The notes beneath the pieces are model-generated. The model was not told the origin of the DNA. It did no database searches and saw only the letters and a list, made by a program, of their open reading frames with translations. This document shows positions 17,168 to 35,846 of a DNA stretch of 64,000 nt, piece by piece. Position 1 is the first letter of the stretch; each line of letters starts with the position of its first letter. The stretch is taken from assembly GCA_963777505.1 (NCBI GenBank), contig CAVZQN010000001.1, forward strand, positions 448,001 to 512,000, read 5' to 3'. The position numbers were made by a program, and so were the translations under genes. This DNA is from an uncultured bacterium (GTDB taxonomy: Bacteria; Acidobacteriota; HRBIN11; JAKEFK01).

Positions 17168-18214
17168 TTACTCCACTTGCATTAATCCTTCATCGTATTT
17201 TTCGCGAGCCCTGTCGGCGTCCGCTTTAGTGAGTGGTGCGAATCCGGAGCCAGTCTTTTTCATTTGTTCGATGTAGTTATTGTATTCAGGTGATCCGCCA
17301 TAGTGGATTTGAGGTTTCCCAGGCGTGGATTCAGGATCGTAAATAAATGTGCGGCCTTTATCGTCCTTGCCTGCAACGACCCAGTGATTGGGTGATCCGT
17401 CGCCATCAGTATCCAGGTTGACCGGCCAGCTTTGACCGTTTTTGAAAATTTTATCCGGAAGCCCCGGCCCTGCCGGTGGAGTGAGACCGGCAGCAGTATA
17501 AAGCGAATGCATATCTCCATCCAAAACTCCTTTTCCACCTTTTGGATCGGGTACAGCGTATCCGCTATGAATCATTTCGCTTAGCTTTGCTAAATCTCCG
17601 TGCGTTGCCGTTTTGTCTTTTATCCGCTTTTCGATTTCATCGAGTTCTTTTGATGGTGGTAAATTCTTTTTCATAGCACCGGTAAGCTTCAGTAGTCCCT
17701 GTTCTCCACCGCTGTTAATGGCCGATGCAATTACTGCAGTCCCGCCGCATCGATCTTTATCTTCCGTAGTTTTTGGATTTTGATCATGTTGCGAAAGGTT
17801 TTGCAAAACTTTTTCGCGATCCATTTTGCCACTGTCGAAAATCGGCGTATTGTCAGGTACACGTGCTTCTGGTTTATAAGGGACTCCTGCAGGAGATGAC
17901 GGCTGCGATGAAAGTTTTTCGGTGACCCAACCTGAAACTTCGACTTTCTTTTCAACCACTGGATAAGTTCCACCAATAAGATCACTCGTAGTCGAAGCTG
18001 AAGCGGATTTGAACGACTCTTGAAGAGTCTGGCGCATCACTTCACCTGAAATTTGCGATTCAGATGTTTTCGCTGCTTTTCCTTCCGATGTTAAAGGCTG
18101 AGTGGTAGAAGAATTCTGCTGCGCATTGCCAGTAGTCTTTTGCGTCTCCGGCGATGACTCACTCGAAGTAGTTGCCGATACCGATTTGTTGCTAATGCCT
18201 TTAATATCGCTCAT
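17168..18214 (-). CDS. hypothetical protein: Ser/Thr-rich N-terminus plus papain-like (Cys-His-Asp) domain
   Basis: GGAGG RBS before MSDIKGIS; LSQ...DRCGGTA and NHWVVAG...FIYDP motifs. Confidence 0.55.
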   Translation of the reverse strand: MSDIKGISNKSVSATTSSESSPETQKTTGNAQQNSSTTQPLTSEGKAAKTSESQISGEVMRQTLQESFKSASASTTSDLIGGTYPVVEKKVEVSGWVTEKLSSQPSSPAGVPYKPEARVPDNTPIFDSGKMDREKVLQNLSQHDQNPKTTEDKDRCGGTAVIASAINSGGEQGLLKLTGAMKKNLPPSKELDEIEKRIKDKTATHGDLAKLSEMIHSGYAVPDPKGGKGVLDGDMHSLYTAAGLTPPAGPGLPDKIFKNGQSWPVNLDTDGDGSPNHWVVAGKDDKGRTFIYDPESTPGKPQIHYGGSPEYNNYIEQMKKTGSGFAPLTKADADRAREKYDEGLMQVE

Positions 18215-18312
18215 TGGGAACCTCCACAAGAAAATTCGATGACTCATTTTTATTTTCGCCTGGAGCGAAAAAAAATCGCCACCTGTACAGGTAGGTGCGG
18301 GATGGTGGAGAG

Positions 18313-18675: not shown

Positions 18676-21354
18676 TTATCGTGGTGTGCGAATTAAATCA
18701 GTCCAGTTCAAAATTACGTTGATTGGAGGACTCGATTGCGCTGTCGCTGTGGAGCTCGAAACAAGAAAGCGCTGGCCATCTGCTGTAACATCGTAATCCG
18801 AGCCATACGGATAAAATGTAGAGGCCGTTATTGGAGCTTTGAATAAAACACGGGGAACACCGGCAACGAAATTTCCTGCGTTGCCATTCACTTCAACTGC
18901 AACGACTTTTCTATCCAACGATAGATAGAACAATTCTTTTCCGTCGCGGCGCCATCTTGGCTGGGCTCCGCCATCCGCAGAAATTCGCCATTTTTTTCCT
19001 GATACAGGAAAGGATTGTACGTACACTTCATAATCTCCAGATTCATCTGACGTATACGCGATCCATCCTCCATCAGGTGAAAATGAAGCTTGAAATTCAT
19101 CGAATTCGGTTTGCAGATAAGGTGAGATTTTCTTTTCTAAGAAATTCATTACCCATATGTCGTTTCTTTTGCCGTACCTGTAGCCGGCTATAAACTTACC
19201 ATCAGATGACCAATCGCTAAGATAAAGGGACTCTTTTAGCAGAACCTGTTCTTCGCCAGCTCCGGTGGAGGACATCAGCAAGATATTAGGTGTATTCGTT
19301 AAAGTTGCTCTGCAATACACAACAGATTTTCCATCGGGAGACCAGACGGGGGTTTCATCAAATTCAGGACGGTATGTCAGGCGAGTTGATACATTGCGCG
19401 AAATATCGGTCACCCAAACATCAGGGGTTAAAGCATCGGGATCACCGCGCAGCCAAGCAACTTGAGTACCGTCCGGGGACAGACGATGGAATCGTGAATC
19501 AACACTATTTTCTAGCTCTCCAACCTGCCCTTGCTGAACACCATTTCGGCCATACCATAAGAATTCAACATCCGACAGTTGGCCTGGCCAATATGCAATC
19601 ACGCCATTATCGGAAACTGAAATCGCAGACTGGCCCGTTGCACTCATCCGTCCACGTTTCGCGATCGGAAACGCTTCGCCCTGAATCCGAAGCGATTGGG
19701 GATCAAACGATTGCGCCAGCATAGCGAAATCTTTGAGATACAAAAGATAGCCGGGAGGCGCATAACTGACCCTGGAACCAGAATCCAACACAAATCTTTT
19801 TTCAGAGGAATCCAGTGAACCAGAATAGATACCTTGATTCTTTTTTGTAAACCGGATCAGATATAGAAAATGGCGCCCATCTGGCAGAAATACTGGAAAG
19901 CGGTGCGTAAGTTCCCCCGCTGATTGATCTAGTTCCGTAACTTGTTTTGGTTTACCTCCATCAGCAGGAACCTGATAAAGTGGACCATTTGGTTGATCAG
20001 CAAAAATGATGATGTTGCTGTTTCCCCAGAAGCCGCCTCGATTTCGAGATGCGTCACATAAAACTTGGGGACGTCCGCCTGAAATCGATATCTTCATTAA
20101 TTTGCCTCTTGCAAAAAACGCAATATACCGGCTGTCGGGTGACCAGAATGGGTTCGTGGAATGTTCTGTGCCTGGAAGCTGACGAGCTTCAGGCTCTTTC
20201 AACGGACGCAGCCAGAGCGTTCTTCTACCATCTGCATTGTTATTAAAGGCAACATACTTACCATCCGGTGAGATTGCTACGGGGCCTGTCCCGGTAAAAA
20301 AGGCGCTGGGATCCGGAGGATGAATCGACAATTGGATTGCAGATTTTTGATGCTGAGGTAAAGATTTGGAAAAATATGCGACTGCAAAGGCCGCTGCGGC
20401 AAGTGCTCCCAATGCTGTTAAAACCCATGGTAGCTTTTGAAAACTCCTATGAGAAACCATCGCAGTCGCTGATGCTTCAGGCTGCGAAATGCTTTCTAAA
20501 ATTCCTTGCAGTTCCAGCATGACATCATGTGCAGTTTGCCATCGCAAATCAGGATCCTTTGCAAGACAAATTTTTATAAGACGCTCAAGCGCGCGTGGTG
20601 TTAACGGCTGAATGCTGGAGATTGGGTGGGGCTCAGCAGACATGATTGCTGTGATCAAGCTTGCGCGGCTTTTTCCTATAAATGCTTTTTTGCCTGTAGC
20701 CATTTCGTAAAGCACAGCACCAAGCGCAAAAATGTCTGTGCGTGTATCTGCTCTCCCTTCTTCTAATTGTTCCGGAGACATGTATTGAAATGTCCCCATG
20801 ATTGTTCCTTCGGCAGTGAGTTCTCTCTCTTCGGTTGCAAGCTCCGATAGTGAATCTGATTTCAATTGAGCTGCAGCTTCAAATTTTGCTAACCCAAAAT
20901 CAAGCAACTTTGCGCCCGATTTTGTCAACATGATATTGCCCGGTTTCAAATCACGATGAACGATTCCTTGCTTATGTGCATTGTGCAGAGCATCAGCAAT
21001 CTGAATTCCATAGCGAACTGTTTGTTCAATCGGAAGAGCGCCTTTCGTTAGTTTTTCTGCGAGAGTCTCCCCTTCCAGGAATTCCATGACAAGATAATCG
21101 ATTCCATTTTGATGACCGATATCATGGAGAGTACAAATATGTGGATGGTTCAAGCTTGAAACTGCACGGGCTTCACGTTCAAAGCGCTGTTTCAAATCAG
21201 TATTTGCCGATAAGTGCGAGGGTAATACTTTGACAGCAACTGTGCGGTTTAATCGCGTATCGATCGCTCGATAAACTTCACCCATTCCACCGGCACCGAG
21301 CGCAGATTGAATTTCAAAGTGGCCAAGCTTCGTACCGGCTTTTAGTGACATCAA
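18676..21354 (-). CDS. Ser/Thr kinase with TM and TolB-like/PD40 beta-propeller repeats
   Basis: GAGGMG, HRDLKPGN, DFG and YMSPEQ motifs; repeated WSPDG/FSPDG. Confidence 0.92.
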   Translation of the reverse strand: MMSLKAGTKLGHFEIQSALGAGGMGEVYRAIDTRLNRTVAVKVLPSHLSANTDLKQRFEREARAVSSLNHPHICTLHDIGHQNGIDYLVMEFLEGETLAEKLTKGALPIEQTVRYGIQIADALHNAHKQGIVHRDLKPGNIMLTKSGAKLLDFGLAKFEAAAQLKSDSLSELATEERELTAEGTIMGTFQYMSPEQLEEGRADTRTDIFALGAVLYEMATGKKAFIGKSRASLITAIMSAEPHPISSIQPLTPRALERLIKICLAKDPDLRWQTAHDVMLELQGILESISQPEASATAMVSHRSFQKLPWVLTALGALAAAAFAVAYFSKSLPQHQKSAIQLSIHPPDPSAFFTGTGPVAISPDGKYVAFNNNADGRRTLWLRPLKEPEARQLPGTEHSTNPFWSPDSRYIAFFARGKLMKISISGGRPQVLCDASRNRGGFWGNSNIIIFADQPNGPLYQVPADGGKPKQVTELDQSAGELTHRFPVFLPDGRHFLYLIRFTKKNQGIYSGSLDSSEKRFVLDSGSRVSYAPPGYLLYLKDFAMLAQSFDPQSLRIQGEAFPIAKRGRMSATGQSAISVSDNGVIAYWPGQLSDVEFLWYGRNGVQQGQVGELENSVDSRFHRLSPDGTQVAWLRGDPDALTPDVWVTDISRNVSTRLTYRPEFDETPVWSPDGKSVVYCRATLTNTPNILLMSSTGAGEEQVLLKESLYLSDWSSDGKFIAGYRYGKRNDIWVMNFLEKKISPYLQTEFDEFQASFSPDGGWIAYTSDESGDYEVYVQSFPVSGKKWRISADGGAQPRWRRDGKELFYLSLDRKVVAVEVNGNAGNFVAGVPRVLFKAPITASTFYPYGSDYDVTADGQRFLVSSSTATAQSSPPINVILNWTDLIRTPR

Positions 21355-22247: not shown

Positions 22248-23021
22248 TCAGGAAAATGAAAGAGCAGCGCTTGCGGCTTCTTTCAAAGTCTTCATCACCT
22301 GGAGATACGGATATGGGCCATAGCTAATACGGGAAACTCCCACTTCAGCAAGTTGTTTTGATGAAGGTGCATCCGGTTGATACATAATATTGATCGGCAG
22401 AGGTGAACGTTCGCAAAGCGTTTCAATGAATGCAATATTGATCAATCCCGGAACAAAAAAGCCAGTCGCACCGGAATCTGCATAAGCTGAAGCCCGGCTC
22501 AAAGCTTCTTCGAGTTGGCTCTCATTGTGAGGAGCAGAATCGGCCTTCAAAAAAATATCCGTGCGTGCATTTATGAAAAGGGGTACTGACAAACGGTCAG
22601 CCGTTTTGCGAATTGCTTGAATCCGTTCCCCTTGGTTCTGAATCGAATACAGGTCAGTTCCACCAACGATTTGATCTTCAAAATTGATTCCTACCGCTCC
22701 GGCTTCAATTACTTTTGCTATAGACACCTGGAGTTCAGCAGGACTCGTTCCATAACCTCCTTCAAAATCGAAAGTAACTGGAAGATCCACATTTGAGATA
22801 ATTCGATTTAGATTTGCCAGTGCAAGTTCAAACGGCAGTTTTTCCCCATCTTGAAATCCATGTGCTGCCGCAACAGACCAACTACCGGTAGCGATTGCCT
22901 TTGCTCCAATCTCTTGTACGATTTTTGCGCTTCCCGCATCCCAGACATTAAACAAAATCACAGGGTTTCCTTTTGTGTGAAGACTTTTGAATGTATTTGC
23001 ATGTTCTTTTTGCTTCGTCAT
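22248..23021 (-). CDS. isocitrate lyase/PEP mutase family protein
   Basis: NVWDAGSA, DFEGGYG, GINFED, INARTD and RISYG motifs. Confidence 0.88.
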   Translation of the reverse strand: MTKQKEHANTFKSLHTKGNPVILFNVWDAGSAKIVQEIGAKAIATGSWSVAAAHGFQDGEKLPFELALANLNRIISNVDLPVTFDFEGGYGTSPAELQVSIAKVIEAGAVGINFEDQIVGGTDLYSIQNQGERIQAIRKTADRLSVPLFINARTDIFLKADSAPHNESQLEEALSRASAYADSGATGFFVPGLINIAFIETLCERSPLPINIMYQPDAPSSKQLAEVGVSRISYGPYPYLQVMKTLKEAASAALSFS

Positions 23022-23171: not shown

Positions 23172-26100
23172 ATGAGTTCTTTGCAATCAGGGGAGACGAT
23201 TCTTCATTATAAGATCCTCGAGAAAATCGGTGAGGGTGGAATGGGGGCAGTTTATAAGGCAGAGGACCTGAAACTCGGAAGACAGGTCGCATTAAAATTT
23301 TTATCTTCGGAATCTCCTGAAGATAAAAAAGCCAAAAGCCGCTTGTTGCAAGAAGCCCGAGCAACATCGGCCCTCAACCATCCCAATATCGTAACAATCT
23401 ATTCCATCGAACATGCCGACGGTTTTGACTTTATAGTCATGGAATATGTGGAGGGGGAAACTCTAAAATCGGTCATCGATCAGGGTTTGTTAGACACCTC
23501 CCGGTTGATGGACCTCGGCGCAGAGATCGCGGATGCTCTTTTTGCAGCACACTCTGCCGGATTCATTCATAGAGACATTAAGCCATCAAATATTCTGGTT
23601 ACTCCGCGCGGTCAGGCGAAGATACTTGATTTTGGTCTCGCAAAATTGGTCCCATTTGTTGATGAACAGCTCAGCGGTGAACAAACGATGAGCAAACTGA
23701 CAAGGACCGGCATGATCATCGGCACGGTAGCTTACATGTCTCCTGAACAGACACGCGGTGAGCCTCTGGATTTTCGTACCGATATTTTTTCGTTAGGTGC
23801 TGTTCTTTATGAGGCAGCTACCGGGGTAGTGCCATTTAGCGGGCCAAGCGTGCTGTCGGTGCTTCATGAGATAGCCACTCTGGATCCGCCAACACCAAGC
23901 ACGTTGAGTCAGAGTGTTCCGCAAGGACTCGATACCATTATCAAACGCGCGCTGGCAAAAAATAAAGAGCAGCGTTATTCCTCTGCTGCGGAATTAGCCG
24001 AAGCTTTGCGCTCACTTCGATTTGCAAATCGTTATCAGATACTCCGTGAAATTGGTCGCGGTGGAATGGGTGTCGTTTATCTTGCTCGCGATCCTATGTT
24101 GCAACGCGACGTTGCAATCAAAGTCATCACTCCAGAATTCCTTGGATCAGATGCTGTAGAACGATTTAAACGAGAAGCACGAGTGGTCGCCAACATGGAT
24201 CATCCATCCATTGTTGGCGTCTATGACATTGGAGAACACGGAGGATCACTCTTTTTTGTTATGCCTTTTGTGGCAGGAACGAATTTGCGAGCATTCATTA
24301 AAGATGGAGCGTTGAGCCTTGGTGATGTACTGAACATCGGAATTCAAGTAGCTGAAGCACTTGATTACAGTCACTCCAAGGGGGTTGTTCACCGGGATAT
24401 CAAGCCGGAAAACATTTTAGTCTCACAGGATGATAGTACGACCGAAGGGATTCGAGTCAGAGTGACTGATTTCGGTCTTGCGATGGCATCAGCACAAAGC
24501 CATCTCACAAAAACAGGAACGCTTGTAGGCACCATATCATATTTAAGTCCCGAACAACTTTCATCAAGGGAACTTGATGGCCGTTCCGATATTTATTCGC
24601 TTGGAATTGTTTTATATGAATGTCTTGTCGGAAAGTCGCCTTATTTGGGAGAGCTGCAATCCGTTCTGTACAGAATTGCGCATGAAATTCCCCAATCACC
24701 CAGAGCATTGGGAGCAGAGATAGCAGAAGAATTGGAACAAATCATCATGCGATCGTTGGAAAAGGATCCCGGTAAAAGATTCCAACGCGCAAAAGAAATT
24801 GCAGAGATGTTAAAGCTCCATCGTGCAAAATTACGTGAGAGCGAGAGACTACAAAAGCTTTCCGTAGTTCAGCGCGCTTCGACTTTAATCCAACGTCCGA
24901 CACAATCTCCTTTTATAGGACGCGAAAAGGAGTTTACTGAATTACAGCGGAGTCTGAATGCAGCGTTGCATGGAGAATGCCAGTTTGTAGTAATTGGTGG
25001 AGAAGCAGGAATTGGAAAAAGCAGGTTGTTGGATGAATTGGAAAATCTGGCAAGAGCAAAAAAGATCAGGCTTCTTCACAGCCGATTCGTAGAACAAGAT
25101 CAAACCTTTCCATACCAGGGCTTCTCCGAAGCAATTCAAGAATATTTCAGAATCAAAGTAACTACATCATCCGGGCCTGTGGATTTTTCTGATCTTGCTT
25201 CAGATCTCGTTTCCCTATTCCCCGTTCTTGCGGAAATGGCCGAATTCACAGGCGGTCAAAAGCTAGTCGTATCAGGCGAAGTGAAGAAGACACAAGACCG
25301 TACTTATATTTTTGATCTACTCGCAAGATCGTTTGCCCGTATCGGCGGAGGCAAACCACTCATCATCTTGTTTGAAGATCTGCAAAATGCCGATGTTTCA
25401 CTCGATGCTCTTCAATACATCGTTCGCCGTCTCGGTCCAACACCAACTTTGATGGTGGGAACGTATCGTACAACCGAAGTTGATAAACACCATCCGCTGA
25501 CAAAGATGCTAAAAAGTTTTCAAGGTGACAAACGTTTTAGCCAGATTAACCTTGAACCTCTATCCATTTCTGATTACCGGCCCTTTTTACAAACACTGAT
25601 TGGCGGATCTGATATGGAACAACATTTTGTGGATAAACTCTACGAAGCTACGGAAGGGAATCCACATTTTACAAAAGAACTAGTTCGCTCATTAATTGAT
25701 TCCGGAAAAATTGCCAAAAATGAAACAGGGGCATGGAGTTTGAGCGGTGAAACTGCACTTTCTTCGGAAGAACTGCCGCCGACAATTCAAGAAACAGTTG
25801 AAAAGCGAATTGAACGTCTTCCCCAGGATTGGCGGGAAATTTTGTCCACAGCATCCATATTAGGTAAAACTTTTGATTTTCGTGATCTTGAAGTATTAAC
25901 CGGAAAAAAAGAAAACATTGAAGATGTAATTGACGGTTTAATCACATCTGGTTTTATAGAAGAAGAACGCCGGTCACGCAGCGATCAGTTTATTTTCTCC
26001 AGCGGTATTGTACGTGATGTACTTTATGCTTCTGTACCCAGGCGAAAGAGAAGAACACTTCACAGAAAATATGCAGAGGATCTTGAAGAGCGTAATGCCG

Positions 26101-29100
26101 GACGTCTCGAACGGGTTTACTCGCTTCTTGTGCATCATTATTCGGAAGGTGATGTCCCTGAAAAGGTAATTGAATTCGGAATCCAGTCCGCAAAAAAATC
26201 ACTGGAAGCTTTAAGCTCCGAAGATGCTCTGCGCACGACAAAAGTCGTACTTGAATTCCTCCAGGGCGAAGAAGATTCCAACAGTGAATTAGAAGGAGAT
26301 GTTCGCATGCTTCTTGCTGAGGCTCATCGTCTTGCAAGCAACACAGATGCAGCCCTTCAAGAATTGGAATCAGCAGTCAGTGTTTTCCAAAAAAGTCAAA
26401 ACACTGAGCGCTTGATTGAATCAATCGTGATGGCGGCTCAGACGGCATGGGATGGACGTAAAGCGGATGACACGCGGCGTTGGGTTGAACAAGGATTGAG
26501 CTTAGCGCGGTCCAGCGGAAAAGTTGAAGCTTTAGTTGACTTGCTGTCCGTTGGAATCACTGTTGCGAATCTCAGGGGCGAATTCGATAAAGCCAGGGAA
26601 TATATGCAGGAAACGGAACGGATTAAACCTGCAATGAAAGAAAAAGAAGAATCCGTTTCACAGGGTGGCAGGCTTGCTGTAGGAATCCCCACTCCTGTTA
26701 CGACAAAACATCCAGTCGATATTCTCATTATGGAAGAGGCGGAGATCCTGGGAAATGTTTTTGAACCCCTTCTTGCTATGGATGAGCATGGTTATGTGGT
26801 TCCGTGTCTCTGTGAGAGTTGGGAAGCTCTCGAAAAAGGGAAATCATTTCTGTTTAAACTGCGGCCGAATGTTCTGTTGCACAATCAACAGCCTCTTACT
26901 GCAGAAGCCGTAAAACGTTCTTTTGAAAAAGGAATTCAGTTAACAAAAGACCGCTTACCTGCTTCTTATTCATCCATACGAGGTGTTACCGAATTCTTAA
27001 ATGGATCATCGGATCATGTTGAAGGAATCATAATCCATTCGCCTCATTCTTTTGCAATTGAACTTCTTGAACCTCTTCCTATTTATCCCTCGCTGTTGAC
27101 AGATAGCCGGGCTGCAATCTGTCTGGATCAGGATAGTCGTCTTAGCGGAACGGGGCCTTTCAAAATTGTATCGTTCAAACCGGATCATGTTTCGATGGAA
27201 CGAAATGAAAATTACTGGAATGGCGCGCCGGCTCCACTGGATGGAATCGATTTCCGTTGCGGAGCAACTTCTGCTGAAATGAGATCGGGTTTACTTTCCG
27301 ATGAACTTGACCTGGCAAGCAATTTACTTCCGGAAGATCTTGAATCCCTTTTACAGAATCCGCAATTCCGATCCGGCATTGTTGAGGCACCAAAGAAAAC
27401 AATTTATTTTGCATTCTTCAACAGCTATAGTAAGTTGGGCCAAAACGCTGATCTTCGGAAAGCACTGAGCGGAGTCATCCGCGTTCATGATTTGATTCGA
27501 GGAACTCTCGGACGCTATGCACTTCCAGCAGAAGGTCTCATCCCTCCTGGAATATTAGGTCATGATCCTGGCAGAAGGCGTCAATCACTCTCGCAAGAAC
27601 AAATACACGAACTGATAAAAAATACAGGATTTGAGTTACCAATCCGTGTTCGAGCGTCGGTTCATCCGCTTTTACTCGATCGATATTCCGCTTTAACGAA
27701 AGCTATTTTTTCAATTTGGTCCGAAATCGGTGTGGAAGTAACGAATACAGCTGCGAATATGAATCAATATATTGGTTCATGGAAAAATAATGAAGATTAC
27801 GATTTATTGATCGGACGCTGGAACGCTGACTATGATGATCCCGATAATTTTACATACACACTTTTTCAATCAGAATTCGGCGAGTTCCGAAGTTACTATT
27901 CATCGAAAGAAATGGATCAATTTATTGAAGAAGCCCGCACCGAACCGAATCCACAAACTCGCGAAAAGGTATATCGCAAAATAGAGAGTTTTTTATTAGA
28001 TAACGCCTTTGCAATTCCTCTGTTTCACGAAATTGATTATCGTGTTGCGAATCCAAAAATTCGGCGGCTCAAGCTTCATAGCAGTCCTCCGTTTGTTAAT
28101 TATTCAAAGCTTGGGAAATCCGAAACAGCAAAGCCGGCAGTGGTCCGGAAAACTGAAGGAGGGCTCGTACAGGTTGCAATGGCCGGCAGGATTGAGAATC
28201 TTGATCCTTCATCGTGCACCACCGTTGCCCAGGGCGATGTGCTCCCCAGTATTTATGAGGGTTTGACCAGACAAGCAGAAGACGCCCAAATCATTCCATG
28301 GCTCGCATCGGAATTTAAAGCAGAAGAAGGCGGAAGAAAATTTCGTTTCCGTTTACGGGACGATGTACGCTTTCATGATGGACGACGTCTTTCCTCACGC
28401 GATGTCCGGTTCTCGTTCGAACACACTTTGCAAAATCCAACGAATCCGGCACGTTGGATGCTGGGCTCAATTCGTGGTGCCAAAGCTTTATCCGATGGTG
28501 AAACGAAAGAATTAGCGGGATTTAAAATCATTTCAGCTCTGGATTTTGTAGTGGAGTTGGATCAGCCTCTTTCCTTCTTTCCTGCCCTGTTGAGTTATCC
28601 AGCAACTGCCATTATCCCGGAAGGAACACGAGACATCAGCGGTAATTTTCTGAATCAATGTATTGGAACAGGACCTTTTCGCGTAGCGCGTTTCGAACCC
28701 GGACAACTTCTTGATCTCGAAGCAAATCCTGATTACTGGCGGCGCGGATATCCGAAAAGTGATCGGCTCGTTATGAACATGGGGCTTTCACCGCAGGATA
28801 TATTGAGCGGTTTCCAATCCGGTCGCTTTTCGGTCGTTGGAGATTTATTTCCTGGAGATGTTGATACTCTTCGTCATTCAAAAGTACCTTTCAAGTATGG
28901 CGAAACTCCACAACTTTGCACCTACTATCTTTTTCTCAATACTCATAAACCACCATTTTCTGATGAAAAAACACGTCACGCACTCATTCAATCCATTGAT
29001 ATTGAAGGAATGGTTCGAAGAAATGTTGGCCGGTTCGCTTTTCCTGCTCACAGTCTCATTCCGCCCGGACTGCTCGGATATGAGCCCAAACGTGCCTATA

Positions 29101-29621
29101 ACAAAAAAGCTGCTGCTAATGCTCCAAGTATGGATAATGTGGAACTAAACGTTATTTTGGGTACCGTTTATGAGGGCCCTTATTCATCCCTTTCTCAAGA
29201 ATTCTTTCAGTTGCTTCGGCAAAAAGGATTTCAAATAAAAAAGGAAAATAAAAAGGCCGAAGATTATTTCCTTTTCGATTCTGTTTCGGATACTGATCTT
29301 GTCATGACGCGTTGGTTTGGAGACTACCCTGACCCTGATACGTTTTTCTATGGATTGCTGCATCGAAAAGAAGGAATTCATGGCGCTTTTTCCGGATCTC
29401 CTGAATTAGACCAACTCATTGAAAGAGGCCGAACTGAAACGCTTCCACATTTAAGACATAAAATTTACCAGGAAGCGGAGCAATTGCTTGCAGAACATGC
29501 CATCTTGGTTCCACTCTTCCACGAAAAAACATACCGGTTTGCTTCTCCGGATACGGAATCGTTTGAATTAAATCTTGCCATCCAGGTTGTTCCCTACGAA
29601 AAACTCTGGATCCGTAGATAA
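23172..29621 (+). CDS. 2149-aa multidomain protein: 2x Ser/Thr kinase - STAND/AAA ATPase - helical/TPR - 2x family-5 solute-binding domain
   Basis: Kinase motifs HRDIKPSN/DFG and HRDIKPEN/DFG; Walker A GEAGIGKS and Walker B ILFEDL. Two SBP5 sets: GTGPF, LRPNVLLHN / LRDDVRFHDG, W.ADYDDPDNF / WFGDYPDPDTF, IPLFH / VPLFH. Confidence 0.9.
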   Translation: MSSLQSGETILHYKILEKIGEGGMGAVYKAEDLKLGRQVALKFLSSESPEDKKAKSRLLQEARATSALNHPNIVTIYSIEHADGFDFIVMEYVEGETLKSVIDQGLLDTSRLMDLGAEIADALFAAHSAGFIHRDIKPSNILVTPRGQAKILDFGLAKLVPFVDEQLSGEQTMSKLTRTGMIIGTVAYMSPEQTRGEPLDFRTDIFSLGAVLYEAATGVVPFSGPSVLSVLHEIATLDPPTPSTLSQSVPQGLDTIIKRALAKNKEQRYSSAAELAEALRSLRFANRYQILREIGRGGMGVVYLARDPMLQRDVAIKVITPEFLGSDAVERFKREARVVANMDHPSIVGVYDIGEHGGSLFFVMPFVAGTNLRAFIKDGALSLGDVLNIGIQVAEALDYSHSKGVVHRDIKPENILVSQDDSTTEGIRVRVTDFGLAMASAQSHLTKTGTLVGTISYLSPEQLSSRELDGRSDIYSLGIVLYECLVGKSPYLGELQSVLYRIAHEIPQSPRALGAEIAEELEQIIMRSLEKDPGKRFQRAKEIAEMLKLHRAKLRESERLQKLSVVQRASTLIQRPTQSPFIGREKEFTELQRSLNAALHGECQFVVIGGEAGIGKSRLLDELENLARAKKIRLLHSRFVEQDQTFPYQGFSEAIQEYFRIKVTTSSGPVDFSDLASDLVSLFPVLAEMAEFTGGQKLVVSGEVKKTQDRTYIFDLLARSFARIGGGKPLIILFEDLQNADVSLDALQYIVRRLGPTPTLMVGTYRTTEVDKHHPLTKMLKSFQGDKRFSQINLEPLSISDYRPFLQTLIGGSDMEQHFVDKLYEATEGNPHFTKELVRSLIDSGKIAKNETGAWSLSGETALSSEELPPTIQETVEKRIERLPQDWREILSTASILGKTFDFRDLEVLTGKKENIEDVIDGLITSGFIEEERRSRSDQFIFSSGIVRDVLYASVPRRKRRTLHRKYAEDLEERNAGRLERVYSLLVHHYSEGDVPEKVIEFGIQSAKKSLEALSSEDALRTTKVVLEFLQGEEDSNSELEGDVRMLLAEAHRLASNTDAALQELESAVSVFQKSQNTERLIESIVMAAQTAWDGRKADDTRRWVEQGLSLARSSGKVEALVDLLSVGITVANLRGEFDKAREYMQETERIKPAMKEKEESVSQGGRLAVGIPTPVTTKHPVDILIMEEAEILGNVFEPLLAMDEHGYVVPCLCESWEALEKGKSFLFKLRPNVLLHNQQPLTAEAVKRSFEKGIQLTKDRLPASYSSIRGVTEFLNGSSDHVEGIIIHSPHSFAIELLEPLPIYPSLLTDSRAAICLDQDSRLSGTGPFKIVSFKPDHVSMERNENYWNGAPAPLDGIDFRCGATSAEMRSGLLSDELDLASNLLPEDLESLLQNPQFRSGIVEAPKKTIYFAFFNSYSKLGQNADLRKALSGVIRVHDLIRGTLGRYALPAEGLIPPGILGHDPGRRRQSLSQEQIHELIKNTGFELPIRVRASVHPLLLDRYSALTKAIFSIWSEIGVEVTNTAANMNQYIGSWKNNEDYDLLIGRWNADYDDPDNFTYTLFQSEFGEFRSYYSSKEMDQFIEEARTEPNPQTREKVYRKIESFLLDNAFAIPLFHEIDYRVANPKIRRLKLHSSPPFVNYSKLGKSETAKPAVVRKTEGGLVQVAMAGRIENLDPSSCTTVAQGDVLPSIYEGLTRQAEDAQIIPWLASEFKAEEGGRKFRFRLRDDVRFHDGRRLSSRDVRFSFEHTLQNPTNPARWMLGSIRGAKALSDGETKELAGFKIISALDFVVELDQPLSFFPALLSYPATAIIPEGTRDISGNFLNQCIGTGPFRVARFEPGQLLDLEANPDYWRRGYPKSDRLVMNMGLSPQDILSGFQSGRFSVVGDLFPGDVDTLRHSKVPFKYGETPQLCTYYLFLNTHKPPFSDEKTRHALIQSIDIEGMVRRNVGRFAFPAHSLIPPGLLGYEPKRAYNKKAAANAPSMDNVELNVILGTVYEGPYSSLSQEFFQLLRQKGFQIKKENKKAEDYFLFDSVSDTDLVMTRWFGDYPDPDTFFYGLLHRKEGIHGAFSGSPELDQLIERGRTETLPHLRHKIYQEAEQLLAEHAILVPLFHEKTYRFASPDTESFELNLAIQVVPYEKLWIRR

Positions 29622-29659: not shown

Positions 29660-30493
29660 CTATTTAGACGCCGATGCTTCTAAGGCCACCGGTGAGGCAG
29701 TGGGTTGCTGGGCTGGGTTTAGACAATAGTTTGTAAATGTGGTTGAAATCTCCCGTGTTTCGGAATAAATGAATAACGCTTTCACCTTAAGGTTCAAGTG
29801 AAGAGAAGCCGGAAGCATTGAATCGCCGTATGGCATCTGTGTGTAATCAAAATCTAAATTCGTTACCTTTGCCAGACCAAAACCGAAACCGACATCATCG
29901 TTGAGACCCGCCTGCAATCTAACAATCCGATATTCCCGATCCACCCACATCGTGCCGTCAAGATGATTTAACACCTTTTCTATTCGATTGCGAACCGGTA
30001 ATTTGGTTTTCTTATGTTTAAACAACAAAACATAAGCCTCGCTGTGATCGTTCGAATCAATGGTGAAATCATATTTCTGCAATAGTTCGTGCCAGCTAAA
30101 GGGAATTCGCTGCGAATTGTTCCCGTTTTGCACCGACTTTTGCCATTCCTTTTTGTTCTGAGCTTCTTCTTTTTTCTGCTTCTCGTTTAACGGACGATTG
30201 TTGATTTGATGCAGTTCAAGGCGCGGTTTTTCCTGATTCCACAAGGTTCGATAATTTCTTGTTTCCGTCTTTTTCGCATCCCCCTTCCGGTTCAACGAAC
30301 GAATATTCATCGTTACGTCGTAACCATAATTCCGGATATTTGATTCATTCTCTGAAGCCTGTTGGGCAATTTTCTGAATAAGCTCATCATGATTCTCCGC
30401 CCCTTCAAGTGGCAGATATATAGAGCCGATTGCAATGAAGACTAGAACAGTTAGAGGTAAGATTCGAAGCATCTGGATCTTTTGCTTCCTCAT
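29660..30493 (-). CDS. exported hypothetical protein (beta-rich, LolA/DUF2092-like)
   Basis: N-terminal hydrophobic leader; GTMWVDREYRIVRL and C-terminal FTNY pattern. Confidence 0.5.
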   Translation of the reverse strand: MRKQKIQMLRILPLTVLVFIAIGSIYLPLEGAENHDELIQKIAQQASENESNIRNYGYDVTMNIRSLNRKGDAKKTETRNYRTLWNQEKPRLELHQINNRPLNEKQKKEEAQNKKEWQKSVQNGNNSQRIPFSWHELLQKYDFTIDSNDHSEAYVLLFKHKKTKLPVRNRIEKVLNHLDGTMWVDREYRIVRLQAGLNDDVGFGFGLAKVTNLDFDYTQMPYGDSMLPASLHLNLKVKALFIYSETREISTTFTNYCLNPAQQPTASPVALEASASK

Positions 30494-31852: not shown

Positions 31853-33170
31853 TTATACCGCCGGCTGCGTGTTACGCGTTCTTTTATCATTCAATTCATT
31901 GGTCTTTTTATTCTGACGCTCATCGGACTGATCTGACGGAACATCAGATTTACGTGATAGGCTGAAGGCGATATCCAATAGAGCCATCAACGATCCTCCA
32001 TTCACGCCGAGGACGTGCCCTACGTCTTGCAAAAAATCGCCGGCAGGATAAAGCACTTCATGAGCGTCGGGTTTCCATGGCCATGGAAAATTCTCCTCCC
32101 ATACCCAGACCACAGGACGGCCTGTTGCATCCTTCACCATGTTCTCTCCGAGCTTTTCGAACTCAACAACGTTGACGGAGAAGCCCACATTGTAGCCAGC
32201 GCCATATATGGCGGCCAAACCAGCTCCACTGCTGAAAGTGAAAGAGCCATCTTTAAATCCAACATCCAAACCTGCACCTCCACCGACACCCGCATATGCA
32301 TCACCTTTACCGTAGACGCTTGCGAATTTCCCTAACGAGCTTCTGCCGGAAATGGATGCAGTTGCAGTTGCAAAAGCTTGTGCACCAAGCCGCAAAAATC
32401 CATCGCCTTTCGTGACATCAACATTTAGAGTGGCTTCTGCTTCAGCAATAATTCCCGCATACGCATCAACGTTGATAATGGAATGCAATGAAGCATCGCG
32501 GCCGAAAAATTTCACACTGGGAGCATCGTGTTTCAATTCAAGATGGAATCCGATGACTTCCAATGAACCTTGCAGCCCCAATCCGAGTTTCGCAGTTAAA
32601 GTTTCTAGCTTAAAATCAGCCACTCCGAATCCACGCAATCTAGCTGATAGAAAATCCAAACGGCCTGTTGCGGAACCGGTTCCTGCTTTCTCATCCTTCA
32701 ATTTCCGATCAATCGGATGCCGAAACACTGCACCCGGATCCAAATCAAACAAGGTCGTCCCTTTTTTCCAATCAAGAGAGCCCATCACATTGCTGTATTT
32801 CTTTTTTAATTCTTCATTTGTGCCGGCAGATCGTGAATCTTTTTCTTTTACTTTGTCACTGTCGCCCCAAACTTCCTTTCCTGCTGCACCTTTGGGTGCA
32901 GCTTTGGAAACCATATCTGCTCCCATCCGCGCTTTGCGCAGTTGGTCTTCCAGATTGAAAACGTCAAGCTGATTCAACCCCTTGAGTTCCGGCAGTTCGG
33001 GAGTATTTAACAATCCGTTGTTCAAAGGATTCTGGGATGTAACTTCTTCAAATTTGTCTTTTACGAATTCAGAGGCTCCTTTTAGAATCGAAGCCGGGCT
33101 TGTATTTGTCTTTTTGGTCCGGGTTGGCGCCCGGGACATTCTTAAGAATGTCTTTCAGGTCGATTTTCAT
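31853..33170 (-). CDS. Gly/Ala-rich amphipathic beta-strand protein, possible secreted pore-former (probable frameshift near 5' end)
   Basis: ORF 31853..33139. AGGAGA RBS plus ATG33170 (MKIDLKDIL) lies in another frame. Repeated DAYAG/QAFAT/GAGL strands. Confidence 0.55.
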
Positions 33171-33380: not shown

Positions 33381-35846
33381 CTATTCATTATGAAGCGCAA
33401 CCAAAGGATCTACGCGGGATGCGCGCCATGCTGGAATAATCGATGCGATCAAAGCAACTGTTACTAAGAACAGTAATGACATTGATATTGTAAGAATATC
33501 CGTTGGGGATACACCAACAAGTAAATATTGAATCGCTCTGGTAGCAAAAATCGCGATCGGCACACCAATTAGCAGTCCAGGCAAAGTTTTCTTCAATCCG
33601 TTTAGTACAATCATCCGCAAAACCACTGGTTGTGATGCACCAAGCGCCATTCGAACTCCAATTTCGTGGGTCCGTTGCGAAACCAGTAAGGCCATTACTC
33701 CATAGAGTCCAACAGCAGCCAGAGCAAGAGCAATAATTCCGAATCCACCAATCAGGCCTGTACCGACATCATACAAACGCATTTTTCCATATCGGATGTG
33801 CTCTTCAAGCGTACGAACTTCCGATAACGAAATTTCGGGATCGATTGCACGCACTTCCGATCGAACAGCGGAAATAATTTCCGCAGGTACGCGCAAAGTA
33901 TGAACATGCAAAACAGTATCAGAACCAAAATGTTGATGGAAAGGCAAATAGAAGATCGGTGTTGGGTCTTCAGCCGGCAAAAGGTATTTTCCAGTTTTTG
34001 CAACGCCAACGATTTCGACTGGTTCTGAATCCCGTGTGTTAAAGCGGAACTTTTTCCCTAACGGATTCTCTGCTGGCCAATATCTCTTGGCCATTGCCTC
34101 ATTCACAATCGCAACTTTTTTACTAGCTGGAGTATCGTTTTCACTAAAGACGCGGCCTTGTAAAATAGGCATTCCGACGGTCTTGAAGTAATCGGATGAA
34201 ATAACATTGAAGAGTTCTTGTTCGGACCCTTCGATCCGCTTTGTCTTGCCTTCAATGAAAACTTCGTAACCTCCATTTCGAAAGCCGATTGGAAGGTAGC
34301 GTCCATACGCGGCAGATTCAACACCCGGGATTGAGCGAACTCGTTCAAGAAGGTTACGGTAAAAAGTTCTTGAACGATTCTCATCATAGTGTAATAGTTC
34401 AGTATTCATCGCCATCACGACACGATTTTTTGTTTGTACTCCGACATCCTGTTTTGCTGCATTCATGGTTGATTGAAGAAACAAACCGGCGCAAACCAGT
34501 AAAACGAGTGAGACTGCGACTTGTGCAACCAATAACACATCGCGAAGTCTTTGACGGCCAGCTCCAACTGCGGAAGTACGGCCTCCTTCTTTTAATGATT
34601 CAACAAGATTTGTAGTCGATGCGCGCAATCCTGGCATCAAGCCCGCTAAAACACCGCTGATGACGGCGATCAAAAGCGAATATCTCAGTACTGTTGAATC
34701 AAGAGAGAAATTCATATCAAGGGGAATGTCCGTAGCAAAGTGCACATTTCCAAGCAAATTCGTTAACCAAAAGGCTAATGCAATTCCGGCTACCGAACCG
34801 AATAACGCCAATAAAAGACTTTCCGATAAAAGCTGACGCAAAATCCGCATGCGGCTTGAACCTAAGGCCATGCGGATAGCGAGCTCTTTTTGTCTTCCGG
34901 AAGCACGCGCATACAACAGACTTGCAACATTTGCACACGCCGCCAGCAGCACAAGGCCAACAAGAGTCATAAATATGATTGCGACAGGAGGCAGAAAGGA
35001 TGCTGCGGCGGGCTCTAAACGCGTTCGTGGTTCAGGATACAGGATCGCGCGTTGACCTTTATGAATTTCACTATATTCTTTTTCGAGTCTAGCTGCTTGA
35101 ACGTTTAGCGCTGATTGTGCCTGTTCATGACTGACGTTTTTTCGAAGCCTTCCTATAAAGAAGACGTCACCCATGCGACTTCTTTGTGCAAGGGTCTTTG
35201 AATAATCAGGATATAAATATTCCGCCGCGGTAATCGGAACATACAGCGTTTGTGCAATCAGACCTGAATTACCACGAAACTGCTTTGATACGATGCCAAT
35301 GATGGTGAATGAGGTGCCGTTAATTCGAATGGTTGAACCCACGACACCTGGATCACCGGCAAAACGTTTTTTCCAGAAGTTATATCCAAGGATTGCAACA
35401 TTGGATGCACCTTGTTGCTGGACTTCTTCAACAGTGAAACTGCGGCCAAGACTCATTTTCACACCAAGAACTTGAAAAAAGTTTCCGGTAACCATTGGAA
35501 ACATGATGTGCTCGGCATTCTTTTTTTCGATCTGAAGCTGACCTTCTACGATTGCCCAGCCTGCCGCATCCTCAAATACATTTTTAAGAGAACTGTAGTC
35601 TTGAAAGGTTGGATAACTTAGAGGCCAGGGCATTCCGCCTTCTTTTTCTGCCAAAACAACTGAAACCAGTTCATTGGCATTGGATGCACCCGGAAGAGGG
35701 CGAAACATGATCGAATATACAACACTGAAAATTGCGGTATTTGCCCCGATTCCTAAAGCCAGGGCAAGCACGGCAAGAATTGTAAATCCGGGGTTTTTCT
35801 TTAAGGTTCGAAGACTGAATTGAAGGTCTTTCAAGATTGAGTTCAC
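33381..35846 (-). CDS. ABC permease, ADOP family
   Basis: KDLQFSLR..KNPGFT, ACANVASLL, EIGVRMALGA and DPLVALHNE; 821 aa. Confidence 0.9.
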   Translation of the reverse strand: MNSILKDLQFSLRTLKKNPGFTILAVLALALGIGANTAIFSVVYSIMFRPLPGASNANELVSVVLAEKEGGMPWPLSYPTFQDYSSLKNVFEDAAGWAIVEGQLQIEKKNAEHIMFPMVTGNFFQVLGVKMSLGRSFTVEEVQQQGASNVAILGYNFWKKRFAGDPGVVGSTIRINGTSFTIIGIVSKQFRGNSGLIAQTLYVPITAAEYLYPDYSKTLAQRSRMGDVFFIGRLRKNVSHEQAQSALNVQAARLEKEYSEIHKGQRAILYPEPRTRLEPAAASFLPPVAIIFMTLVGLVLLAACANVASLLYARASGRQKELAIRMALGSSRMRILRQLLSESLLLALFGSVAGIALAFWLTNLLGNVHFATDIPLDMNFSLDSTVLRYSLLIAVISGVLAGLMPGLRASTTNLVESLKEGGRTSAVGAGRQRLRDVLLVAQVAVSLVLLVCAGLFLQSTMNAAKQDVGVQTKNRVVMAMNTELLHYDENRSRTFYRNLLERVRSIPGVESAAYGRYLPIGFRNGGYEVFIEGKTKRIEGSEQELFNVISSDYFKTVGMPILQGRVFSENDTPASKKVAIVNEAMAKRYWPAENPLGKKFRFNTRDSEPVEIVGVAKTGKYLLPAEDPTPIFYLPFHQHFGSDTVLHVHTLRVPAEIISAVRSEVRAIDPEISLSEVRTLEEHIRYGKMRLYDVGTGLIGGFGIIALALAAVGLYGVMALLVSQRTHEIGVRMALGASQPVVLRMIVLNGLKKTLPGLLIGVPIAIFATRAIQYLLVGVSPTDILTISMSLLFLVTVALIASIIPAWRASRVDPLVALHNE

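Follow-up and report, generated by a model that had tools for sequence, protein, structure and literature searches.

A giant kinase and STAND ATPase with tandem family-5 solute-binding domains, and its family of candidate intracellular sensors in Acidobacteriota

Within a 64,000-nucleotide stretch of an acidobacterial contig (CAVZQN010000001.1, positions 448,001 to 512,000; here called the window), a single plus-strand open reading frame (ORF) with an ATG start encodes a 2149-residue protein composed of two Hanks-type Ser/Thr kinases, an AAA_16 ATPase of the STAND class (signal transduction ATPases that have numerous domains), a tetratricopeptide repeat (TPR) region and two complete family-5 solute-binding protein domains (SBP_bac_5; here SBP5, with the two copies named SBP1 and SBP2). 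On balance, we favour the view that this protein is a cytoplasmic, ligand-gated STAND kinase of the MalT/PknK branch, with the N-terminal kinases as effector and the SBP5 tandem as sensor. STAND kinases, a cytoplasmic SBP5 sensor (SgrR, as we take it to be) and solute-binding proteins that control TPR kinases are known already; what is new is a STAND protein with a tandem SBP5 sensor, and the family to which it belongs is widespread in Acidobacteriota and mis-named in databases.

An open frame of 2149 codons in DNA of 45% GC is far beyond chance, and the uninterrupted frame reported by the first-pass annotation, an earlier model reading of the letters, is not only present but conserved across homologues. 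The domain order proposed there is matched by the placements of two family databases. Pfam finds Pkinase in two stretches (E = 6e-102), AAA_16 at aa 580-761 (E = 1.2e-18; 68.6 bits, cut-off 32.6), weak TPR_MalT/TPR_12 matches at aa 1013-1148 and SBP_bac_5 in two stretches (E = 3e-107), the last with 359 bits, profile positions 1-364 of 368 covered and both modules above the family cut-off. NCBIfam places kinases at aa 11-281 and 284-570 and OppA/NikA/DppA-like domains at aa 1180-1635 and 1666-2146, all of the latter far under equivalog cut-offs. Each of the ATPase motifs singled out earlier (FIGREKE, GEAGIGKS at aa 610, ILFEDL at aa 732, TEGNPHF at aa 827 and LPPTIQE) is found in the translation. 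Across the family alignment, which holds the 120 listed homologues (79-100% query coverage, 50-76% identity) and underlies the homologue counts given throughout, mean column identity was 0.82 for kinase 1, 0.75 for kinase 2, 0.75 for the NOD (the domain for nucleotide binding and oligomerization), 0.66 for the TPR region, 0.67 for SBP1 and 0.66 for SBP2, so that the SBP modules are conserved about equally to the TPR region and less than the NOD. The linkers between the TPR region and SBP1 and between SBP1 and SBP2 are hydrophilic and only ~15 residues each.

Could such a protein be a chimera, in which assembly or annotation has joined genes for a kinase, a STAND protein and two transporter SBPs? 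The assembly does contain split genes elsewhere, namely a kinase, the third family paralogue described below, and an SBP and an ATPase gene on contig 8. Indel errors, however, break frames and never create one of 2149 codons, and the collinear, stop-free architecture is found in all 120 listed homologues, which come from several sources; collinear copies also occur in 17 of 201 genomes sampled from the phylum and at 80 of 80 listed loci from a genome scan. Recurrence in independent assemblies means that the gene is not a mis-join, a concern raised in the first-pass annotation, and we regard an artefact as practically negligible. The indels which that annotation had suspected elsewhere in the assembly do fit what we see there. 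In the window, a Ser/Thr kinase is split over two overlapping plus-strand frames (870..1478 and 1366..1881), and this split kinase (870..1881) matches the giant protein at its residues 6-161 and 173-283; on contig 8, a free-standing SBP5 gene and an oligo_HPY ATPase gene are also split.

Both kinases carry the full set of Hanks-type features (Gly-rich loop, VAIK Lys, alphaC Glu, HRD, Asn, DFG and APE/SPE), and every catalytic residue of a complete RD kinase is present in each: K42, E61, HRD133-135, N140, DFG153-155 and SPE190-192 in kinase 1, and K317, E335, HRD407-409, N414, DFG433-435 and SPE459-461 in kinase 2. Kinase 2, for which the closest solved kinases are PknB, PknA and StkP, is the orthologue of the sole kinase in one-kinase members of the family. 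Its catalytic residues are kept in 110/110 to 114/114 homologues, and it has a PknB-like T-x-T activation loop (T446 in 114/114, T448 in 107/114 and T454 in 114/114). Kinase 1 is confined to forms of ~2150 aa, where its catalytic residues are kept in 42-44 of the 43-46 two-kinase homologues aligned, and where the loop threonines T172 and T177 are present in 43/43 and 43/45, respectively. The two kinases are 40% identical to each other and abut with almost no linker.

The central ATPase has the marks of a STAND protein: a Walker A motif of the form GxxxxGK[ST], a Walker B acidic pair, a fold made of nucleotide-binding, helical and winged-helix domains (NBD-HD-WHD), and effector and sensor at opposite ends. 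Walker A (GEAGIGKS) spans G610-S617 (nt 24999-25022) and Walker B ends in E735-D736 (nt 25359-25379); K616 and E735 are each kept in 118/118 homologues and D736 in 106/118. An AlphaFold2 (AF2) model of aa 560-1163, built from a 45-row alignment, reached a mean predicted local distance difference test score (pLDDT) of 82.6, and its top Foldseek matches were solved STANDs, with PH0952 (6MFV) first (E = 4.8e-12) and Avs3 (E = 7.7e-9), Apaf-1 (E ~2e-8), CED-4, EfAvs5 and MalT (8bob, E = 4.8e-6) also among them. The template modelling (TM) scores of these matches were low (0.2-0.4), as expected because these are multi-domain chains. A sequence search of the PDB with the NOD-TPR part returned nothing below E = 0.01, so this part has no solved close relative; in a PDB profile search with the whole-family alignment, kinase and SBP matches dominated, which made it uninformative for the NOD. 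A complex prediction for two NOD copies (residues 20-396, first alignment row) with ATP scored 0.01 against a mark of 0.42 and weighs on neither side of the question of oligomerization.

The ATPase families found in the Pfam scan at E <= 0.01 were AAA_16, AAA_22, ATPase_2 and BrxC_BrxD; no NACHT, NB-ARC or leucine-rich repeat (LRR) family appeared at that threshold. Because the ATPase is of the AAA_16, MalT/PknK kind and LRRs are absent, the description of this protein as similar to nucleotide-binding LRR receptors (NLRs), which the first-pass annotation had used, is valid solely in the broad STAND sense. What falls is the strict NLR label; the architecture, the prediction of a cytoplasmic location and the effector-NTPase-sensor layout all stand, with kinases at the N-terminus and the TPR region and two SBP5 domains at the C-terminus. 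An arm and the short TPR region connect the NOD with the SBP modules, their helices lying at model residues 398-592. The C-terminal ~200 residues of the NOD-TPR model match TPR domains, and VIA-align paired the STAND model with LGN (Z 19.6, rmsd 1.6, 159 aligned residues) and with Rap proteins (Z ~16), in a list that was filled by the TPR part and that confirms the TPR fold only.

Each SBP5 module has the complete bilobed fold, by Pfam, AF2 and Foldseek alike, in agreement with the original description of two full domains. By sequence, module 1 matches 5u4o (2.4e-28), 8upi and DppA (1dpp, 1.9e-23) in the PDB, while module 2 matches 8upi (1.5e-39), MppA (3o9p, 3.9e-35) and OppA. Foldseek matches to MppA, OppA, DppA and AapF reached TM-scores of up to 0.84-0.85 when normalised by target, the value for MppA 3o9p against the model of the SBP tandem being 0.84 with an rmsd of 3.4. 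This AF2 model (aa 1150-2149; mean pLDDT 83.6, predicted TM-score (pTM) 0.52, linker pLDDT below 50) indicates two well-folded modules whose predicted arrangement is not confidently fixed.

The binding pockets, whose possible degeneracy had been flagged as a concern, do not look degenerate. Module 1 contains the motif R1549-W1550-x-x-D1553-Y (D1553 at nt 27828-27830) and module 2 the motif R2047-W2048-x-x-D2051-Y (D2051 at nt 29322-29324). In HMMER alignments, D1553 aligns with Asp408 of DppA (counted from Arg355) and D2051 with the Asp of the OppA/MppA W-x-x-D-Y motif; this anchoring-type Asp is near-invariant in both modules (118/120 and 119/119, respectively). We take the conserved Asp (Asp408 in DppA, Asp419 in OppA) to be the anchor of the peptide alpha-amino group. 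The Trp of W-x-x-D is also conserved across the family in both modules, and immediately before it stands a family-specific Arg (119/120 in SBP1, 113/119 in SBP2). SBP1 and SBP2 are only 29% identical and therefore probably bind different things. The OppA, NikA, DppA, GsiB, SapA and Opp4A/5A equivalogs point to no particular ligand, all of their scores lying far below the NCBIfam cut-offs.

We found no signal peptide or transmembrane helix in the protein using 19-residue Kyte-Doolittle windows and inspection of the N-terminus, in keeping with the earlier reading. The highest window mean, 1.38, lies in the kinase core and falls short of the classical threshold of 1.6; the N-terminus leads directly into the kinase glycine loop; and no lipobox or export signal was found on the SBP modules. 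The protein is thus predicted from its sequence to be soluble and cytoplasmic. SBP5 domains are generally known as periplasmic or lipoprotein-anchored, and an overlooked membrane segment or export route would place them outside the cell, making the protein a receptor kinase with external sensors, like the PASTA kinases; 5 of 120 homologues even show a marginal hydropathy peak (1.62-1.70) at the TPR-SBP1 junction. Yet these junction peaks are the first SBP5 beta-strand (GG-x-L-x-V-A-L-x-x-P-V), with its Gly and Pro, and the junction scores below 1.4 in the 2149-aa protein itself. An N-terminal signal is absent as well, and separating the NOD and kinases from two 500-residue domains would require a transmembrane helix within a 15-residue hydrophilic linker, which makes an extracytoplasmic sensor very improbable. 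Across the family, 19 of 120 homologues have a window of 1.6-1.86, and all of these are core strands of soluble folds containing Pro or Gly (the strand of Walker B, or else the first strand or the FFPALL motif of SBP5).

A role as the substrate-binding component of an ABC importer was considered and rejected, there being neither export signal nor lipobox and no cognate permease/ATPase operon, so that the database name 'ABC transporter substrate-binding protein' is misleading. As had been noted, no ABC permease or ATPase is adjacent: Pfam analysis of the neighbours found no BPD_transp or Opp-type ATPase within ~10 kb of the gene, and oligo_HPY (Opp/Dpp-type) ATPase signatures are located elsewhere in the genome.

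How might the parts work together? In the scheme for STAND proteins given in passages of PMC4381067 and PMC6468293, a closed, ADP-bound NOD is autoinhibited by arm and sensor, an inducer opens it, ATP binds, and the resulting multimer activates the effector by proximity. Applied to the present protein, the resting NOD would be closed on ADP and held by arm and sensor contacts. A small ligand bearing an amino group, for which a peptide, a muropeptide or a similar metabolite would be candidates, would bind one or both SBP5 modules and close the flytrap, and closure would shift the TPR region and arm and free the NOD. ATP would then displace ADP, the protein would multimerise, and the crowded kinases would trans-phosphorylate their activation-loop threonines and afterwards substrates encoded elsewhere; a relay from one kinase to the other may operate in two-kinase forms. 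Its likely task is housekeeping signalling of nutrient or cell state, in a phylum whose kinase repertoires are very large. The source genome (5.2 Mb) itself has a very large Hanks-kinase repertoire, with 126 kinase-like matches, most of them in frames of 700-1140 aa.

Several points weigh against this ligand-gated kinase. Everything past the architecture, from the ligand and its class through autoinhibition, oligomerization and the trans-phosphorylating kinase cascade to the physiological role, is what we infer. In the SBP1 alignment nothing matches Arg355 of DppA, presumably the clamp on the dipeptide carboxylate, so that a dipeptide mode like DppA's has no support; likewise, the pTM of 0.52 and the linker pLDDT below 50 leave a cooperative two-ligand sensor, which the first-pass annotation had thought possible, unsupported. 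The neighbourhood analysis proposed there brought no partner to light: comparing ORFs of at least 100-120 aa within ~6-7 kb, no neighbour is conserved next to 11 related loci, including one from a same-genus genome, or next to 80 further related loci, and the context therefore points to no partner, be it substrate, phosphatase or transporter. Finally, the family is patchy in the phylum, with a full or near-full NOD-to-SBP2 match in 17 of the 201 sampled genomes, and patchiness, copy-number expansion and variable context are also seen in immune receptors.

The SBP5 modules might also do without a small ligand, serving as protein scaffolds (for substrates or unfolded polypeptides) or as autoinhibitory lids, with the inducer bound by the TPR region as in MalT. 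Characterised STANDs bind their inducer at a repeat-type sensor, according to a passage of PMC4381067, and the present protein has a TPR region with fold-level likeness to the peptide-binding TPRs of the Rap type; the missing counterpart of DppA Arg355 in SBP1 would also fit. The TPR region, however, is short (~190 residues), whereas both SBPs keep the full fold and the W-x-x-D-Y Asp, and conservation of the pocket strands, including the Arg before the Trp, is hard to explain without a ligand. We consider a role of the tandem without a small ligand unlikely.

A more specific proposal is a family of cytosolic peptide or muropeptide receptors like NOD1/NOD2, in which MppA/OppA-like flytraps would read peptides from wall turnover, import or phage, kinase 2 would relay to kinase 1, and each paralogue would have its own ligand. 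NOD1 and NOD2 are cytosolic muropeptide sensors and offer a conceptual parallel, and the murein-tripeptide binder MppA is among the top matches of SBP2. MppA is no closer to SBP2 than OppA or 8upi are, which makes a muropeptide just one possible ligand, and we find this proposal quite unlikely. If it were true, this would be the first STAND protein with a solute-binding-protein fold as its inducer-binding module, and, among bacterial Ser/Thr kinase families, the first in which a cytosolic small-molecule ligand site can be predicted directly.

The protein is not a singleton; its family has hundreds of members at the least. Independent assemblies with the same collinear architecture number more than 100 and carry the label Acidobacteriota in almost every case; of the 8000 candidates scored in a protein search with aa 560-2149, 1039 proteins reached E <= 0.001. 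Family members come in two forms, a one-kinase form of ~1880 aa and a two-kinase form of ~2150 aa, of which the former is commoner (67/120 against 43/120 homologues, the other 10 being N-terminally short). A true kinase-less form was considered and rejected: most of the 7-10 short matches begin within the kinase C-lobe or at the linker, and therefore look like truncated gene calls. Nor could a single origin of the two-kinase forms be upheld, since just 33 of 43 fall in one clade, with support of 0.78, in a FastTree phylogeny of 117 of the 120 sequences that was read unrooted and left out three rows lacking the full core. Where homologues are named in databases, they are called 'ABC transporter substrate-binding protein' or 'serine/threonine protein kinase/ABC-type transport system substrate-binding protein', and the named sources are Acidobacteriota, Blastocatellia, Pyrinomonadaceae and Thermoanaerobaculia.

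When species-representative genomes were scanned with aa 1000-1700, the TPR-SBP1 junction, 297 related stretches were confirmed. Coverage of this 701-residue query extends at least from residue 27 to residue 699 in each of the best 80 of these 297, and their titles name Acidobacteriota classes save for two Clostridia metagenome-assembled genomes (MAGs), one Nitrospiraceae and seven entries titled 'uncultured bacterium'. Among these 80 loci, two pairs lie on shared contigs (L066/L069 and L060/L114), and one MAG contributes five. In the phylum sample of 201 genomes, where two candidates were scored per genome, 72 had some match at 1e-30. The 17 with full or near-full matches comprise seven from the source's own family, f1 (G000, G041, G071, G096, G108, G144 and G155), and ten from outside it (G010, G024 (unpublished), G045, G081, G083, G101, G154, G175, G179 and G200); one more genome, G095, has a contig-end fragment only.

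In the source's family, 7/7 genomes have the gene, in copy numbers from 2 to at least 6 per genome, as in a sensor family that is expanding. G108 has at least five two-kinase copies and one one-kinase copy, several of the family copies lying within ~50 kb of one contig (C12, 274347-326463). Such clustered copies point to local duplication and lineage-specific expansion. The source genome holds three paralogues: the present gene, a one-kinase form of 1875 aa (L029, 53% identity) and a third copy (G000:C4:1102054-1106095; L035:7028-11099). The third consists of two overlapping frames, one encoding a kinase with AAA_16 (746 aa) and the other a TPR region with an SBP2-like domain (613 aa), and has a single SBP5 and no SBP1; this copy could be a pseudogene with a frameshift, the product of an assembly indel or a variant with one SBP that is split naturally. 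The three STAND kinases account for 5 of the 12 SBP_bac_5 matches in this genome, and ~4 free-standing genes for the remainder.

Expansion of this kind raises the question of whether the protein is an anti-phage STAND immune receptor of the Avs type, whose SBP5 domains would recognise a phage peptide or protein and whose kinases would act as an abortive-infection or signalling effector. The STAND layout and the fold matches to Avs3 and EfAvs5 would suit such a receptor, as would the copies of G108 packed into 50 kb, the locus pairs on one contig, the patchy distribution and a context that varies even inside one genus; kinase effectors exist in defence, and the kinase domains match the PADLOC models PD-T4-6, mad6 and MkoA. 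These PADLOC matches are nevertheless restricted to the generic kinase domains, while the 1590-aa NOD-TPR-SBP part matches 0 families (E <= 0.01) and four neighbouring ORFs are without a match in the same models (PADLOC-DB 2.0.0, beyond whose reach lie undescribed defence systems); Pfam analysis of ten neighbours revealed no defence genes either. Relatives carry one- and two-kinase orthologues of constant length, all 7 genomes of the family have the gene, and the Asp that would anchor a small ligand is kept in nearly all homologues with no diversification there. The 126 kinase-like matches in the genome, moreover, fit a signalling-rich lifestyle. The evidence leans away from a defence role, which we judge decidedly unlikely. 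If either this or the muropeptide proposal were true, the SBP5 tandem would represent a new sensor class for prokaryotic NLR-like immunity.

We found no description of the kinase-STAND-SBP5 architecture in the full-text literature, a search beyond which lie subscription journals and supplements and, with them, domain-architecture surveys; the earlier statement that no characterised protein has this architecture agrees with that result. PknK of Mycobacterium tuberculosis and the MalT-clade STAND kinases share the N-terminal Hanks kinase, the AAA_16-type NOD and the TPR-like region. PknK presumably has one kinase and no SBP5 domains, whereas here two complete SBP5 domains stand at the sensor end and a second kinase is present in many members. 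A passage of PMC4381067 names PknK as a bacterial STAND kinase alongside MalT, and a passage of PMC6468293 also names Ser/Thr kinases among the STANDs. MalT of E. coli follows the same STAND logic and is probably of the same clade, with a small-molecule inducer at a C-terminal sensor, ADP-to-ATP exchange and multimerisation (described in a passage of PMC4381067). It differs in that its effector binds DNA and its long SUPR/TPR superhelix, rather than any SBP fold, binds maltotriose directly. The best NCBIfam match to the NOD-TPR part is the TOMM kinase/cyclase fusion family (TIGR03903), with aa 570-1149 aligned to model positions 472-1043 of 1267, and the two therefore share the same kind of kinase-linked AAA_16-TPR module; TIGR03903 itself is without SBP5 modules. 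Membership in TIGR03903 was rejected at 469.1 bits against a cut-off of 705.75, and no cyclase family is in the Pfam list.

With OppA, MppA and DppA (SBP cluster C), the present modules share the complete fold, sequence similarity at E-values of 1e-23 to 1e-39 and the W-x-x-D Asp, but here they are fused in tandem to a cytoplasmic ATPase and kinase, without signal peptide or lipobox and without adjacent permease or ATPase. SgrR, which we take to be a helix-turn-helix regulator with a C-terminal SBP5, would be the precedent for a cytoplasmic SBP5 sensor. This one-component transcription factor has one SBP5 only and neither NTPase nor kinase; a table in PMC6408766 equates a 'solute-binding protein, family 5' gene with SgrR. 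In the GlnH-GlnX-PknG system of mycobacteria and corynebacteria (PMC6069109, PMC8546545), amino-acid availability is reported by a Ser/Thr kinase with TPRs, and this kinase is controlled by a solute-binding protein. That SBP, however, is a separate extracytoplasmic protein that signals via a membrane protein, with no STAND ATPase involved, whereas here everything resides in one cytoplasmic polypeptide. Avs proteins and NLRs such as NOD1/NOD2 share the tripartite effector-NOD-sensor layout and fold-level similarity in the NOD, yet the ATPase here is AAA_16, there are no LRRs, and the non-kinase part matches no PADLOC model.

A second SBP5 architecture occurs in the phylum. Many of its genomes contain frames of ~1060-1260 aa whose C-terminal ~490 residues match SBP2 at 26-35% identity, and SBP2-like frames of similar size are found in all 14 sampled genomes of family f21. 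Three of these frames, one of them from f21, were checked by Pfam and combine the signalling domain of methyl-accepting chemotaxis proteins (MCPs) with an SBP_bac_5 domain (L031-L033, Table 1). Each has two hydrophobic helices at its N-terminus but no such helix beyond the MCP domain, and the SBP5 domains are 28-35% identical to SBP2. Because no transmembrane helix follows the MCP domain, these SBP5 domains should be cytoplasmic, and judging by sequence the proteins resemble chemoreceptors whose SBP5 sensor lies inside the cell. They lend independent support to the use of SBP5 for intracellular sensing in Acidobacteriota, in at least two architectures of the phylum, STAND kinases and MCP-type receptors.

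Most bacterial Hanks-type kinases, like most bacterial STAND proteins, have to our knowledge no established activating signal. The present family joins both to a type of domain whose ligands can be found quickly by standard screening (thermal shift, ITC, crystallography), and since the sensor is a screenable ligand-binding fold, the family is experimentally tractable. It offers a direct route to a pathway from signal through switch to kinase in Acidobacteriota, an abundant and poorly studied soil phylum, and hundreds of database entries called 'ABC transporter substrate-binding protein' are mis-named.

Table 1. Coordinates of the giant kinase gene, its domains, neighbouring genes in the window and the MCP-SBP5 comparison proteins.
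Feature	Position	Strand or orientation	Details
Whole gene	23172..29621	+	2149 codons plus stop
Kinase 1 (aa ~12-281), Hanks-type RD Ser/Thr kinase	23205..24014	+	Pfam, NCBIfam
Kinase 2 (aa ~285-556), Hanks-type RD kinase	24024..24839	+	Pfam, NCBIfam
STAND NOD (NBD-HD-WHD), aa ~580-955	24909..26036	+	AAA_16, AF2 model, Foldseek
Arm and short TPR region (aa ~957-1151), ~10 helices	26040..26624	+	Pfam (weak), AF2, VIA-align
SBP5 module 1 (aa ~1165-1645)	26664..28106	+	Pfam, NCBIfam, PDB matches, AF2
SBP5 module 2 (aa ~1662-2149)	28155..29618	+	Pfam, NCBIfam, PDB matches, Foldseek
Upstream PEP-mutase-like gene	22248..23021	divergent	
Downstream ORF, 277 aa, no known family	29660..30493	-, convergent	
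MacB/FtsX-type permease, sole nearby transporter	33381..35846	opposite strand	
MCP-SBP5 protein (~1070 aa)	L031:777-4028	+	MCPsignal and SBP_bac_5 by Pfam
MCP-SBP5 protein (~1070 aa)	L032:504-3725	-	MCPsignal and SBP_bac_5 by Pfam
MCP-SBP5 protein (~1070 aa)	L033:451-3651	+	MCPsignal and SBP_bac_5 by Pfam

With a divergent gene upstream and a convergent one downstream (Table 1), the giant kinase gene is a one-gene unit. When the window was compared with the 11 related loci, the sole ORF cluster shared by at least three loci was that of the MCP-SBP5 ORFs of L031-L033, which are fetched comparison genes and not flanks; among the 80 further loci, the sole clusters (9-13/80) came from the gene itself, as overlapping or antisense frames that Pfam does not match. 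The 277-aa downstream ORF and two other minus-strand ORFs, 31853..33139 (428 aa) and 17168..18247 (359 aa), have no Pfam or PADLOC match and no homologue flanking the 80 related loci. A search of sequencing runs listed three, none of them an RNA run, each with 0.05-0.06 of the sampled words. Just upstream, at 18676..21354 on the minus strand, lies another of the genome's 126 kinase-like matches, in a gene that combines a kinase with a PD40 beta-propeller.

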